13,291 nt of DNA from UHGV virus genome UHGV-0257054. The stretch is one strand, 5' to 3'. Source of the DNA: a virus. The first letter of the stretch is position 1; each line of letters begins with the position of its first letter. Below are positions 2,383 to 11,995 of the stretch, in pieces. The notes beneath the pieces are model-generated. The model saw only the letters and a list, made by a program, of their open reading frames with translations. It ran no database searches and had not been told where the DNA came from. The translations under genes were made by a program, and so were the position numbers.

Positions 2383-2823
2383 ATGGCGCGCCCAACAAAG
2401 TATCAAGAGGCGTATGCCGAACAGGCACGCAAACTGTGCTTGCTGGGCTACACCGATGCAGAACTTGCTGATTTCTTTGAAGTCAGTGAGTCAACTATTA
2501 ACAAGTGGAAGCTTGATTATCCTAAGTTTTCGGAGTCCATAAAAAAGGGTAAGGCCGTCGCTGATGCAGAAGTTAGTGACCGTCTTTATCAACGCGCTAT
2601 GGGCTTTGTGGCTCCAGACATCGATATTCGTGTTATTGAAAACAGAATTGTCGAAACTCCGCTTGAGAAGTATTACCCGCCTGATACAACCGCCGCCATC
2701 TTCTGGCTTAAGAACCGACAGAAGGATAAATGGCGCGACAAGGTTGATCACGAGCTAACAGGCAAAGACGGCGGCGCAATTCAGATTGAAACATCACCGA
2801 TGAGCACTCTATTCGGAAAATGA
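2383..2823 (+). CDS. Terminase small subunit (TerS)
   Basis: 146 aa. The N-terminal helix-turn-helix-like region (GYTDAELADFFEVSESTINKW) is typical of TerS DNA-binding domains. The C-terminal tail ...TGKDGGAIQIETSPMSTLFGK matches my recollection of Sf6 gp1. Stop overlaps the large-terminase ATG (ATGA at 2820-2823). Confidence 0.85.
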   Translation: MARPTKYQEAYAEQARKLCLLGYTDAELADFFEVSESTINKWKLDYPKFSESIKKGKAVADAEVSDRLYQRAMGFVAPDIDIRVIENRIVETPLEKYYPPDTTAAIFWLKNRQKDKWRDKVDHELTGKDGGAIQIETSPMSTLFGK

Positions 2824-4235
2824 CCTCGATTAATCCTATCTTTGAACCGTTCATTGAGGCGCATCGCTACAAAGTTGCCAAAGGCGGTCGAGGTAGCGGT
2901 AAGTCATGGGCAATTGCGAGGCTGCTTGTTGAGGCGGCGCGTCGGCAGCCGGTGCGTATTCTCTGCGCTCGTGAACTGCAAAACAGTATCAGCGATTCGG
3001 TAATCCGGTTGCTTGAAGATACCATCGAGCGTGAAGGGTATACGGCTGAGTTTGAAATTCAGCGTTCCATGATTCGTCATCTCGGAACGAATGCTGAGTT
3101 CATGTTCTACGGCATCAAAAACAACCCGACGAAGATTAAATCGCTCGAAGGCATTGATATCTGCTGGGTGGAGGAAGCGGAAGCGGTAACGAAGGAATCA
3201 TGGGATATCCTGATACCAACCATCCGCAAGCCATTTTCCGAAATATGGGTGAGCTTCAACCCGAAAAACATCCTCGACGATACCTATCAGCGATTCGTAG
3301 TAAACCCTCCCGATGATATTTGTCTGCTGACGGTGAACTACACCGACAACCCGCACTTTCCTGAAGTTCTCCGTCTGGAGATGGAAGAGTGTAAACGCAG
3401 AAACCCGACACTGTATCGTCACATCTGGCTTGGTGAGCCAGTAAGCGCAAGTGATATGGCAATCATCAAACGTGAATGGCTTGAAGCCGCAACCGATGCG
3501 CACAAGAAACTCGGATGGAAAGCGAAAGGCGCTGTTGTCTCTGCGCATGACCCATCAGATACAGGGCCAGATGCTAAAGGTTATGCATCGCGTCACGGTT
3601 CGGTAGTTAAGCGCATTGCCGAAGGTCTGCTGATGGACATCAACGAGGGTGCTGACTGGGCTACTTCGCTGGCGATTGAAGACGGCGCTGACCATTACCT
3701 GTGGGATGGTGATGGCGTCGGTGCGGGCCTACGCAGACAGACAACGGAAGCGTTCTCCGGCAAGAAAATCACCGCCACGATGTTCAAGGGCAGTGAATCG
3801 CCATTCGATGAAGATGCGCCATATCAGGCCGGAGCATGGGCTGATGAAGTCGTACAGGGCGACAATGTTCGCACTATTGGCGATGTGTTCCGCAATAAGC
3901 GAGCACAATTCTATTACGCGCTGGCTGACAGGCTGTATCTGACATATCGGGCGGTTGTTCACGGTGAGTATGCAGACCCAGACGACATGCTGAGTTTCGA
4001 CAAAGAAGCGATAGGCGAGAAGATGCTGGAGAAGCTGTTTGCAGAACTGACGCAGATTCAGCGCAAATTCAATAATAACGGGAAGCTGGAGCTTATGACT
4101 AAGGTCGAAATGAAGCAGAAGCTCGGTATTCCATCTCCTAACCTGGCTGATGCGCTGATGATGTGTATGCATTGCCCAGAGTCGGCTGCGCAACACGACT
4201 ATTCCAGTTACTCAATTCCTTGTGGTGTAGGTTGA
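2820..4235 (+). CDS. Terminase large subunit (TerL; ATPase plus nuclease)
   Basis: 471 aa with a Walker A motif (KGGRGSGKS at residues 21-29) and a Walker B-like motif (ICWVEEAE). Start and length match my recollection of Sf6 gp2. Sits between TerS and portal. Confidence 0.95.
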   Translation: MTSINPIFEPFIEAHRYKVAKGGRGSGKSWAIARLLVEAARRQPVRILCARELQNSISDSVIRLLEDTIEREGYTAEFEIQRSMIRHLGTNAEFMFYGIKNNPTKIKSLEGIDICWVEEAEAVTKESWDILIPTIRKPFSEIWVSFNPKNILDDTYQRFVVNPPDDICLLTVNYTDNPHFPEVLRLEMEECKRRNPTLYRHIWLGEPVSASDMAIIKREWLEAATDAHKKLGWKAKGAVVSAHDPSDTGPDAKGYASRHGSVVKRIAEGLLMDINEGADWATSLAIEDGADHYLWDGDGVGAGLRRQTTEAFSGKKITATMFKGSESPFDEDAPYQAGAWADEVVQGDNVRTIGDVFRNKRAQFYYALADRLYLTYRAVVHGEYADPDDMLSFDKEAIGEKMLEKLFAELTQIQRKFNNNGKLELMTKVEMKQKLGIPSPNLADALMMCMHCPESAAQHDYSSYSIPCGVG

Positions 4236-9378: not shown

Positions 9379-10797
9379 ATGCCGATTCAGCAACTTCCGC
9401 TTATGAAAGGTGTCGGCAAAGATTTCAGAAACGCCGACTATATCGACTATCTGCCAGTGAATATGTTGGCTACACCCAAAGAAATCCTGAACAGCAGCGG
9501 ATATCTTCGCTCATTCCCGGGCATTGCCAAACGTTCTGATGTGAACGGTGTATCGCGCGGAGTCGAGTACAACATGGCGCAGAATGCTGTATATCGCGTG
9601 TGTGGCGGCAAGCTGTATAAGGGCGAAAGCGAGGTCGGTGATGTTGCCGGAAGTGGTCGCGTATCAATGGCACACGGTAGGACATCACAGGCAGTAGGCG
9701 TTAATGGTCAACTGATCGAGTATCGCTATGATGGCACGGTTAAAACCGTCTCAAACTGGCCTGCAGACAGTGGATTCACTCAGTATGAGTTAGGTTCAGT
9801 TCGCGACATTACGCGCTTGCGTGGGCGTTATGCGTGGTCAAAAGACGGCACTGATTCATGGTTCATCACTGACCTTGAAGACGAATCGCATCCTGACCGT
9901 TACAGCGCACAATATCGCGCAGAATCGCAGCCGGACGGCATCATCGGTATCGGCACATGGCGAGATTTCATCGTCTGTTTTGGTTCATCGACGATTGAAT
10001 ATTTTTCCCTGACTGGTGCAACCACAGTTGGTGCTGCTTTGTATGTCGCACAGCCATCGCTGATGGTGCAGAAAGGCATTGCCGGGACTTACTGCAAAAC
10101 GCCGTTTGCTGATTCGTATGCGTTCATCAGCAATCCGGCAACAGGTGCGCCGTCTGTATATATCATCGGCTCCGGTCAGGTGTCACCAATCGCCAGCGCG
10201 AGCATTGAGAAAATTCTCCGCTCCTACACTGCTGATGAACTGGCTGATGGTGTGATGGAATCGCTGCGGTTTGATGCTCATGAGTTGCTGATTATCCACC
10301 TTCCGCGCCACGTCCTCGTGTACGACGCATCTTCAAGCGCCAATGGTCCGCAATGGTGTGTGTTGAAAACTGGCTTGTATGATGATGTGTACCGCGCTAT
10401 CGACTTCATTTACGAAGGAAATCAGATAACGTGCGGCGATAAGCTGGAATCTGTTACCGGGAAACTGCAATTCGACATCAGCAGCCAGTACGACAAGCAA
10501 CAAGAACACCTGCTGTTTACACCCCTCTTCAAAGCGGATAACGCCAGATGCTTCGATCTGGAGGTGGAATCATCGACGGGTGTTGCTCAGTATGCTGACC
10601 GCCTTTTTCTCTCTGCAACCACTGACGGCATCAATTACGGGCGTGAGCAGATGATTGAGCAGAATGAACCGTTCGTTTACGACAAACGCGTTTTGTGGAA
10701 GCGAGTAGGGCGCATCAGGAAAAATGTCGGCTTCAAATTGCGCGTTATCACGAAGTCACCTGTCACTCTGTCTGGCTGCTCTATTAGGCTGGAGTAA
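9379..10797 (+). CDS. Tail hub protein (P22 gp10-like)
   Basis: 472 aa, the same length as P22 gp10, in the syntenic position between the gp4-like and gp26-like genes. Confidence 0.85.
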   Translation: MPIQQLPLMKGVGKDFRNADYIDYLPVNMLATPKEILNSSGYLRSFPGIAKRSDVNGVSRGVEYNMAQNAVYRVCGGKLYKGESEVGDVAGSGRVSMAHGRTSQAVGVNGQLIEYRYDGTVKTVSNWPADSGFTQYELGSVRDITRLRGRYAWSKDGTDSWFITDLEDESHPDRYSAQYRAESQPDGIIGIGTWRDFIVCFGSSTIEYFSLTGATTVGAALYVAQPSLMVQKGIAGTYCKTPFADSYAFISNPATGAPSVYIIGSGQVSPIASASIEKILRSYTADELADGVMESLRFDAHELLIIHLPRHVLVYDASSSANGPQWCVLKTGLYDDVYRAIDFIYEGNQITCGDKLESVTGKLQFDISSQYDKQQEHLLFTPLFKADNARCFDLEVESSTGVAQYADRLFLSATTDGINYGREQMIEQNEPFVYDKRVLWKRVGRIRKNVGFKLRVITKSPVTLSGCSIRLE

Positions 10798-10799
10798 TA

Positions 10800-11294
10800 A
10801 TGATTTCACATGAAGAGTTGAAGCGTCATTTATCATATGACCCAGAAACCGGGGTTTTTACCCGAAAAATATCAAATACAGCGAGCGTCACCGTTGGTGA
10901 TGAAGCGGGAACCATGTGCACTGGTTATTTAAGGATAATGGTCTGTGGTAAGAGATACTTAGCGCATAGGCTTGCTTGGTTTTATATGACAGGAAAACCT
11001 GCAAATTGCTTAATAGATCATATTAACGGAGACAGAACGGATAACAGATTTTCAAATTTAAGATTGGCAAATAGATCCCAGAATGGGATGAACAGGAATA
11101 TTCAAAGAAATAATAAGTCAGGATATCCTGGTGTCTGTTGGCACAAAAATCTCTGCAAGTGGACTGTTTCTTTCAAGAAAAATAAAAAACAGGTTCACGT
11201 TGGATGCTTCGATGACCTGGACGAAGCTATCTCAGCATCAATGATGGCAAGAGCAGAAAATTTTGGAGAGTTTGCAAGGCAGAGGATTGAGTAA
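10800..11294 (+). CDS. HNH homing endonuclease with C-terminal AP2-type DNA-binding domain
   Basis: 164 aa. HNH motif region [43 protein letters not shown], followed by an AP2-like segment ([36 protein letters not shown]). Visibly AT-rich compared with flanking genes. Start is 2 nt after the gp10 stop; stop overlaps the gp26 ATG (TAATG). Confidence 0.85.
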
Positions 11295-11995
11295 TGGCGG
11301 ATTCATCACTGAATAATCCTGTCGCGGTTCAGGCTACGCGCCTTGATGCTTCAATTTTGCCACGCAATATATTCAGCCAGTCTTACCTGCTGTATGTCAT
11401 AAATCAGGGTGCTGATGTTGGCGCAATTGCCGGGAAGGCAAATCAGGCTGGTCAGGGCGCTTACGATGCTCAGGTAAAAAACGATGAACAGGACGTCGAA
11501 CTGGCAGATCACGACGCAAGAATCACCGCAAACACAAAAGCGATAAATCTCCTTGAGGTCAGGTTAACAACCGCCGAAGGGAAGATAGTCGTACTGCGTA
11601 GCGATGTTGATTACTTGCTGGATGAGGTTATCGATATTCAGGCGCATCTGGTCACAGTTGACCAAAGACTGGATGGCGTAGAAAGCGATGTATCTGACAT
11701 TAAGAGTGATTACGTATCGAAAACCGTAACCGAATTGCAGTCTCTTGAGTCACCGCTGGATGTAAAAACATCATATTCAGTTGATGGAATTCAGGTTGTT
11801 GGAGCAAGAAATACCGGATGGACTGCAGCCACAGGTACGCCACTTCTTGGCTCATTCAACGCTAACCAGTCATACACTGTCGGCACTACGTACACACAAT
11901 CCGAAGTCGCAGCTCTCGCTACAGGTTTGCAGCAGGCGCGGCAGCGTATTCTGGCGCTTGAAACGGCACTTAGATTACATGGGCTGATTGACTGA
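11294..11995 (+). CDS. Tail needle / plug protein (P22 gp26-like)
   Basis: 233 aa. The N-terminus [35 protein letters not shown]...[31 protein letters not shown] and the C-terminus ...[13 protein letters not shown] match my recollection of P22 gp26. The central coiled-coil heptads differ. Confidence 0.9.

Follow-up and report, generated by a model that had tools for sequence, protein, structure and literature searches.

A gene at the tail hub/needle junction of P22-like phages is probably a free-standing, site-specific HNH-AP2 homing endonuclease gene

A 164-aa open reading frame lies between the tail hub and tail needle genes of a 13,291-nt stretch of viral DNA (UHGV-0257054; the whole stretch is called the window below). 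From comparison of this locus with its relatives we conclude, with a probability of roughly 80%, that it is a free-standing, site-specific HNH(HNN)-AP2 homing endonuclease gene that colonised the hub 3' end of P22-like phages. An earlier note on this DNA, made from the window alone, had likewise proposed a free-standing homing endonuclease in a late operon, and that proposal is supported here by the optional presence of the gene, its confinement to one site and its near-invariance in diverse flanks.

The late region of a P22-like (Lederbergvirus) phage or prophage makes up the window, whose closest complete relatives are CUS-3 and phiv205-1 (~95-96% identity across ~85% of the window). Its genes run in the order Rz spanin, Rha-like regulator, small and large terminase, portal, scaffold, coat, gp4, hub gp10, the HNH open reading frame, needle gp26, gp14 and gp7. 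The genes at the junction are the following.

9379-10797, plus strand: tail hub (head-closure) gene gp10, 472 aa (PF11134 Phage_stabilise, E=1.7e-301; phrog_578); its 3' end holds the insertion site.
10800-11294, plus strand: HNH(HNN)-AP2 endonuclease open reading frame, 164 aa, ATG start.
11294-11995, plus strand: tail needle gene gp26, 233 aa (phrog_1219 tail needle, E=4e-113); its start is preserved by the insert.

The hub TAA stop (10795-10797) is followed by a 2-nt spacer (TA) and by the HNH ATG at 10800, and the HNH TAA (11292-11294) overlaps the needle ATG (11294). The earlier note had the geometry right throughout, with a gene of 164 aa starting 2 nt past the hub stop and meeting the needle in a TAATG overlap. 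It had also given the P22 arrangement as hub followed directly by needle, and this is indeed the usual layout: gp10 and gp26 overlap through TAATG in HK620, in Bas106 and in 75 of 80 sampled IMG/VR loci. The HNH open reading frame is a separate one, with its own start and stop between two others, and it lies within neither an intron nor an intein; no Rfam family, group I and II introns included, was matched anywhere in the window. A search for a promoter or terminator belonging to the gene returned no plus-strand sites, with counts at or below the shuffle expectation, and folding of 10755-10845 was no better than that of shuffled sequences (z=+0.98), giving no sign of an RNA structure masking the HNH ribosome-binding site. 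Read-through of the late operon is most simply the source of its transcription. Since the gene has no detectable promoter of its own, its product is probably made late, together with the virion genes. In base composition the gene stands apart from its ~50% GC neighbours, as the earlier note had remarked: its GC content of 0.394 (GC3 0.376) is the lowest among all 495-nt windows of the 13.3 kb (z=-5.1; mean elsewhere 0.501, sd 0.021, minimum 0.442).

Profile searches placed the product in the HNH-AP2 endonuclease class that had been proposed for it, with the HNH_3 match above threshold and the AP2 match below it. The two domains map as follows.

10956-11090, plus strand: HNH_3 nuclease domain, residues 53-97, with the boxes HRLAW, DH (D73, H74), DNR, NLR and QN (N95).
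11118-11258, plus strand: AP2-type DNA-binding domain, residues 107-153, with three strands and a helix.

Pfam HNH_3 was matched over its full profile (1-46) with 58.7 bits against a cut-off of 24.8 (E=4.3e-16). The AP2 match of the 164-aa protein has E=8e-5, below the Pfam cut-off, and AP2 was matched in 52 of 62 relatives. PHROGs assigned the protein to phrog_99 'HNH endonuclease' (E=4e-70), and no NCBIfam model matched it. By computational test the protein has the beta-beta-alpha-metal fold of HNH (His-Me finger) endonucleases; the profile match, the Asp-His dyad and the downstream Asn residues place it in the HNH_3 (I-HmuI-like 'HNN') subset, and the C-terminal AP2 domain following the HNH domain is the architecture of HNH-AP2 homing endonucleases. 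The HNH catalytic motif, whose absence the earlier note had named among the findings that would count against it, is intact. Residues D73, H74, N86 and N95 align with D74, H75, N87 and N96 of I-HmuI, whose catalytic roles were reportedly described in the 2004 paper on the I-HmuI structure, and they are invariant or nearly so among the 62 relatives.

The family is large, with 4926 proteins matching at E<=1e-10 and relatives present in 2188 of 50,697 phage records, often in several copies per genome. The closest members outside the hub/needle junction are only 45-54% identical. The protein itself is identical to that of Escherichia phage vB_EcoP-683R2, and the DNA of the gene is 100% identical to E. 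coli genome loci annotated WP_021529423.1. The assignment corrects two database labels, since the identical gene in vB_EcoP-683R2 (ON470594.1, L001:3501-3995) is called 'endolysin' and a 46%-identical relative in Salmonella phage S4lw (OQ660438) 'putative class I holin'.

We located the edges of the insertion by in-silico excision and by comparison with alleles that lack the gene. The features involved are these.

10786-11282, plus strand: inserted cassette, 497 nt, whose in-silico deletion restores the empty gp10/gp26 junction.
10780-10785, plus strand: hub codons Ser-Ile (TCTATT), where empty alleles of the same E. coli clade have Gln-Ile (CAGATA); four linked substitutions.
10786-10797, plus strand: left copy of a 12-bp imperfect direct repeat, AGGCTGGAGTAA, identical in all carriers.
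11283-11294, plus strand: right-hand repeat copy, AGGATTGAGTAA, which has the sequence found at the hub 3' end in empty alleles; formerly the end of the hub (R-I-E-stop), it now forms the last HNH codons.

Empty alleles read ...GGCTGC CAG ATA AGG ATT GAG TAA TGG C..., and the hub ends C-Q-I-R-I-E-stop with its stop overlapping the needle ATG. The window junction reads ...GGCTGC TCT ATT AGG CTG GAG TAA TA ATG...(HNH)...CAG AGG ATT GAG TAA TGG C.... Excision of 10786-11282 rebuilds the Bas106 junction at 90 of 94 nt, with all four mismatches within 10780-10785; the junction spans of GenBank relatives are 497 nt shorter, and 15 relatives align across the junction with a 497-nt gap. The alignment of insert-free alleles, which the earlier note had suggested as a check, fixed the insertion point to the base, between hub codons 468 and 469 of the empty allele (...TGC CAG ATA ^ AGG ATT GAG TAA TGG...). 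Since excision restores the empty junction, the cassette must lie inside the hub gene, four codons from its end. That the insert sits exactly between hub and needle, as first described, holds for the boundaries of the open reading frames and fails for the cassette, which lies within the last four hub codons.

The two repeat copies account for how both neighbouring genes stay whole. On the left, the copy supplies a replacement hub C-terminus, R-L-E-stop, and contains GGAG at 10791-10794, 5 nt ahead of the HNH ATG, which is likely the ribosome-binding site of the HNH gene. On the right, the copy keeps the AGGA ribosome-binding site of the needle and the TAATG stop/start overlap. Because the HNH frame continues through the original AGG ATT GAG TAA, the needle ribosome-binding site and the TAATG coupling are untouched, and because the cassette reuses the original hub end as its own C-terminus, the hub remains full-length and the needle translationally coupled. 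We read the four linked substitutions at 10780-10785 as a putative co-converted or immunity patch. The Ser encoded at 10780-10782 is the normal residue at this hub position in other P22-like clades, and the Ser and CTG/GTG codons of the replacement end are typical of the hub ends of those clades (C-S-V/I/L-R-I/V-E), a resemblance that fits import of the cassette and a few adjacent bases from another clade.

Empty alleles also often contain an 11-bp interrupted palindrome, CTGGC-T-GCCAG (window 10772-10782), which ends 3 nt before the insertion point and in place of which carriers show CTGGCTGCTCT. We considered this palindrome as a possible binding site and dropped it: it was found in only 45 of 75 empty loci, and it is therefore probably no required element.

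The gene is missing from this junction in ~96-99% of close relatives. It is carried by one of the 81 GenBank P22-like phage records that match the flanks (vB_EcoP-683R2), and by 16 complete E. coli genomes against ~914 with the same hub 3' end (of 5426 genomes). Exact junction matches in IMG/VR gave 11 carrier junctions and at least 120 empty ones. An IMG/VR sample of the 80 loci whose hub protein is closest to that of the window (98-99% identical) held three carriers, 75 empty TAATG junctions and two junctions of the P22 type (GAGTAAAATATG). The earlier note had held that its reading would fail if all P22-like phages carried the gene with host-like composition; the counts above (1/81, 16/914 and 3/80) and the GC content of 0.39 show the reverse. 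All full-length copies examined with their flanks sit at the hub/needle junction. Presence or absence at one precise site, with the empty site intact, is the polymorphism of a homing gene. The core of the empty site, CAGATA^AGGATYGAGTAATGG, is nearly invariant across the 75 empty loci (47 unique), and in carriers it is split by 497 nt and altered at four of its six left-hand bases, which is the arrangement of a self-immune allele if, as we infer, this core serves in recognition. Natural variants observed at the empty site are ATT/ATC, GGC/GGT and CAG/TCT. One carrier P22-like virion cluster lies on a 176,608-bp record labelled 'plasmid p3' (NZ_JBXRYH010000004.1, E. coli EC20); possible readings are an assembly issue, a phage-plasmid, or a plasmid into which a prophage has integrated.

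The carriers comprise 13 unique haplotypes with three needle types, including the Sf6-type needle knob. Their flanks differ by 3-17%, and their copies of the gene are at least 99.4% identical, with 0-3 differences over 495 nt. All carriers have one block in common.

10777-11297, plus strand: low-diversity block of all carriers; the nearest flank polymorphisms are at 10776 and 11298.

The block has four segregating sites in the 10 carrier haplotypes (of 13 overall) that have the needle type of the window. Nucleotide diversity (pi) is 0-0.008 in the block and 0-0.007 in the gene; it rises to 0.03-0.13 on the hub side and, over the first 100 nt of the needle, to 0.13-0.17, which leaves the HNH gene 20-50 times less diverse than the adjacent essential genes. 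For both flanks of each carrier, a 95-99.7% identical non-carrier was found in the sample, and the median difference between the left flanks of carriers is 7%. The gene is thus far less diverged than its flanks and occurs on several flank lineages, as is characteristic of horizontal spread. Transfer of the cassette between genomes with very short co-conversion would produce such a pattern, and the tract common to carriers extends over only ~6-9 nt to the left and 3 nt to the right. Biased inheritance of the flanking tail genes, which the earlier note had raised, is plausible, with this short tract as a reservation. Frequent ordinary recombination in the mosaic P22-like phages could contribute to the same pattern. 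The most diverse stretch near the junction among carriers is 11298-11397, that is, those first 100 needle nt; in the rest of the needle pi is 0.02-0.05 among carriers sharing a needle type. This jump in diversity at the needle start places the endonuclease gene on a sharp mosaic boundary.

More distant relatives suggest that the association with this site is old. Proteins 78% (P0003) and 75% (P0004) identical to that of the window are encoded at the same junction in metagenomic P22-like contigs, and their genes too start after a 2-nt gap and end in ...RIE-stop, with the stop overlapping the needle ATG. The P0003 contig has a hub 72% and a needle 45% identical to those of the window, and empty junctions are the rule in its clade as well. 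Comparison of the window gene with its 78% relative gave a pN of 0.10 and a pS of 0.62, and the resulting dN/dS of ~0.08 indicates that the protein has been kept functional. The P0003 and P0004 genes have a GC content of 0.40-0.41 against 0.51 for the hub. Since these diverged relatives keep the low GC, it is a stable trait of the gene and no mark of recent arrival, and the equation of AT-richness with recent acquisition is ruled out. Where the earlier note took AT-richness to point to horizontal acquisition, the acquisition itself stood, through the spread across 13 flank haplotypes, and low GC as a sign of recent arrival did not.

Degenerate copies occur as well, as in the usual life cycle of homing endonuclease genes. 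In E. coli FDAARGOS_1280 an IS2 element lies within the 5' part of the HNH gene (L016:2261-3489), leaving nt 109-495. Two more E. coli genomes (H58 and H59) have the same shortened match, nt 109-495, together with a second matching place, which suggests the same IS2 insertion. One IMG/VR copy (L150, ~745-1238) has a 1-nt deletion in the T5 run at HNH codon 20 (GGGGTTTTTACC to GGGGTTTTACC), which makes it a frameshifted pseudogene unless the deletion is a sequencing error in the homopolymer.

The main rival to homing is that the gene is a passive passenger, inserted once and now spread by ordinary homologous recombination, with the nuclease no longer driving. P22-like genomes are strongly mosaic and flank haplotypes are diverse in carriers and non-carriers alike, so that recombination around one old insertion could put a near-identical cassette into many flank backgrounds. 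The low occupancy of ~1-4% and the existence of disrupted copies (the IS2 insertion and the 1-nt deletion) would also suit a gene that has lost its drive. Against these points, a dN/dS of ~0.08 over a long divergence, together with intact catalytic residues, indicates a protein under selection; the edges of recombination match the edges of the cassette within 3-9 nt in many backgrounds; and the 20- to 50-fold deficit in diversity relative to the adjacent essential genes is unlike that of a passenger. We consider this explanation unlikely. Occupancy is nonetheless a counterpoint to homing, being only ~1-4% for a gene that seems old at its site. Strong drive would be expected to raise it, and homing may therefore be rare, costly or balanced by loss.

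Homing at this site would proceed as follows. A carrier would meet a related genome with an empty junction, either in a co-infection or because that genome is present as a prophage, resident or induced. Binding of the near-invariant empty site CAGATA^AGGATYGAGTAATGG would fall to the AP2 domain together with the N-terminal region, and the HNH domain would nick or cut near CAGATA^AGGATTGAGTAATGG; nicking of one strand is possible by analogy with I-HmuI. We infer both the recognition and the cut site from the position of the insertion point only. Recombinational repair off the carrier genome would then introduce the cassette, co-converting only a very short tract. Carrier alleles would be immune to the enzyme, an immunity that we propose to follow from the splitting of the site by the insert and its change at four of the six left-hand bases.

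A domesticated function, in which the protein acts against related phages or prophages as an exclusion or anti-competitor nuclease, or else works as an AP2-type DNA-binding regulator, appears considerably less probable still, and the data can be explained without it. The purifying selection on the gene would suit such a function, and marker exclusion can result from homing endonuclease genes, as with the T4 Seg proteins. There is also a precedent for the regulator: transcriptional silencing is a role into which AP2 domains of other phage proteins have been recruited (bioRxiv 10.64898/2026.02.23.707548). However, the gene is missing from more than 95% of close relatives and is therefore dispensable for the life cycle, its strict site fidelity and the recombination at the cassette edges are what homing predicts, and the intact nuclease motif speaks against a purely regulatory role. 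That the protein is a packaging helper, as the earlier note had entertained, and assists terminase like the HNH nuclease HK97 gp74 in cos phages, is highly improbable: although an HNH protein is encoded here in a late morphogenesis operon, the gene lies ~6.5 kb downstream of the terminase genes (2383-4235) rather than next to them, it is absent from nearly all relatives (more than 95%), which package normally, P22-like phages package by a headful (pac) mechanism, and the protein is of the I-HmuI-like HNH_3 plus AP2 class, unlike the small terminase-associated HNH proteins.

The hub/needle junction has also received a second, unrelated endonuclease gene. Phage HZ41 (OM022251; L003:2020-2565) carries at this position a 181-aa NUMOD4 + HNH_3 + HTH gene, copies of which at 95% identity or more occur in 16 E. 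coli genomes. Like the window gene it lies between hub and needle, is optional and is accompanied by a recoded hub 3' end; its DNA-binding module is a different one, and the HNH core alone aligns with that of the window protein (32% over 56 residues). It further differs in having a 21-nt spacer past the hub stop and a much longer diverged hub tract, and its own stop overlaps the first needle codons. In HZ41 approximately the last 110 hub codons are strongly diverged from those of relatives, possibly as one long imported stretch. A similar 181-aa open reading frame with the same N-terminus was found past the hub in a diverged clade (L253). We tentatively suggest that the junction may be a long-standing contested homing site, at which at least two unrelated HNH lineages (HNH-AP2 and NUMOD4-HNH-HTH) persist across diverged clades, each with its own replacement hub C-terminus, and where breaks at the boundary may promote the swapping of needle types. 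In that case a known mosaic boundary in the P22 tail module would be shaped by selfish nucleases, and the needle type, a determinant of DNA delivery, would be exchanged between phages.

In the literature that we searched, no endonuclease gene was described at the gene 10/26 junction; an earlier mention in Casjens and Thuman-Commike (2011) is possible. As a natural case of a homing gene in a temperate P22-like phage the locus is a clean one, with the empty site, the insertion point, the cassette edges and the self-immunity changes all defined to the base. It illustrates how an element can enter the end of an essential gene harmlessly, by carrying a spare end and reusing the old one for downstream coupling. 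The enzyme could serve as a site-specific nicking or cutting tool for the engineering of P22-like phages. The gene belongs to the already described HNH(HNN)-AP2 class of phage homing endonucleases (PMC10448857; PMC2248197), and the understanding of such elements is unchanged; what is specific here is the temperate P22-like host, the base-exact site, the 'spare gene end' arrangement and the strict site fidelity over diverged clades.

Among known systems, the free-standing SegF, SegG, SegE and MobE of T-even phages ('intronless homing') are of GIY-YIG (Seg) or another HNH (Mob) type, reside in virulent phages and are experimentally proven. The window gene resembles them in lying between or at the edge of conserved essential genes, in being optional among relatives, and in its expected course of cutting the empty allele, copying in and co-converting nearby markers. 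It differs in residing in a temperate P22-like phage or prophage and in its very short co-converted tract. I-HmuI of Bacillus phage SPO1 (PDB 1u3e) has the same DH...N...N pattern without zinc-binding cysteines, at weak overall similarity (E=0.19, 24% identity). Its gene is carried within a group I intron and its DNA-binding modules are of the NUMOD and helix-turn-helix types, whereas the window protein is free-standing with AP2; enzymes of the I-HmuI type nick one strand.

Members of the HNH(HNN)-AP2 class are present in phages, cyanobacteria and protists according to Magnani et al. (2004), as cited in PMC10448857, and multiple copies are found in T1, T5, Felix O1, Chi-like and Jersey-like phages. 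They have the same two-domain architecture as the window protein and the same boxes HRLAW, DH, DNR, NLR and (E/Q)N. In the Xanthomonas phages Xp10, OP1 and Xop411, HNN-AP2 genes fall into groups I-III and their insertion was judged to be sequence-independent (PMC2248197), whereas the window lineage occupies strictly one junction over three diverged clades. A further parallel is given by the IPA-HNH genes of Vibrio phage ICP1 and the 'nuclease genes at boundaries of genetic exchange' (PMC10448857); the ICP1 proteins are too divergent for the HNH_3 profile, while the window protein is a canonical HNH_3 member. Shared with the window gene are the combination of HNH and AP2, a place adjoining structural genes and a position at a mosaic boundary, which at the window gene separates a conserved hub from three different needle types.
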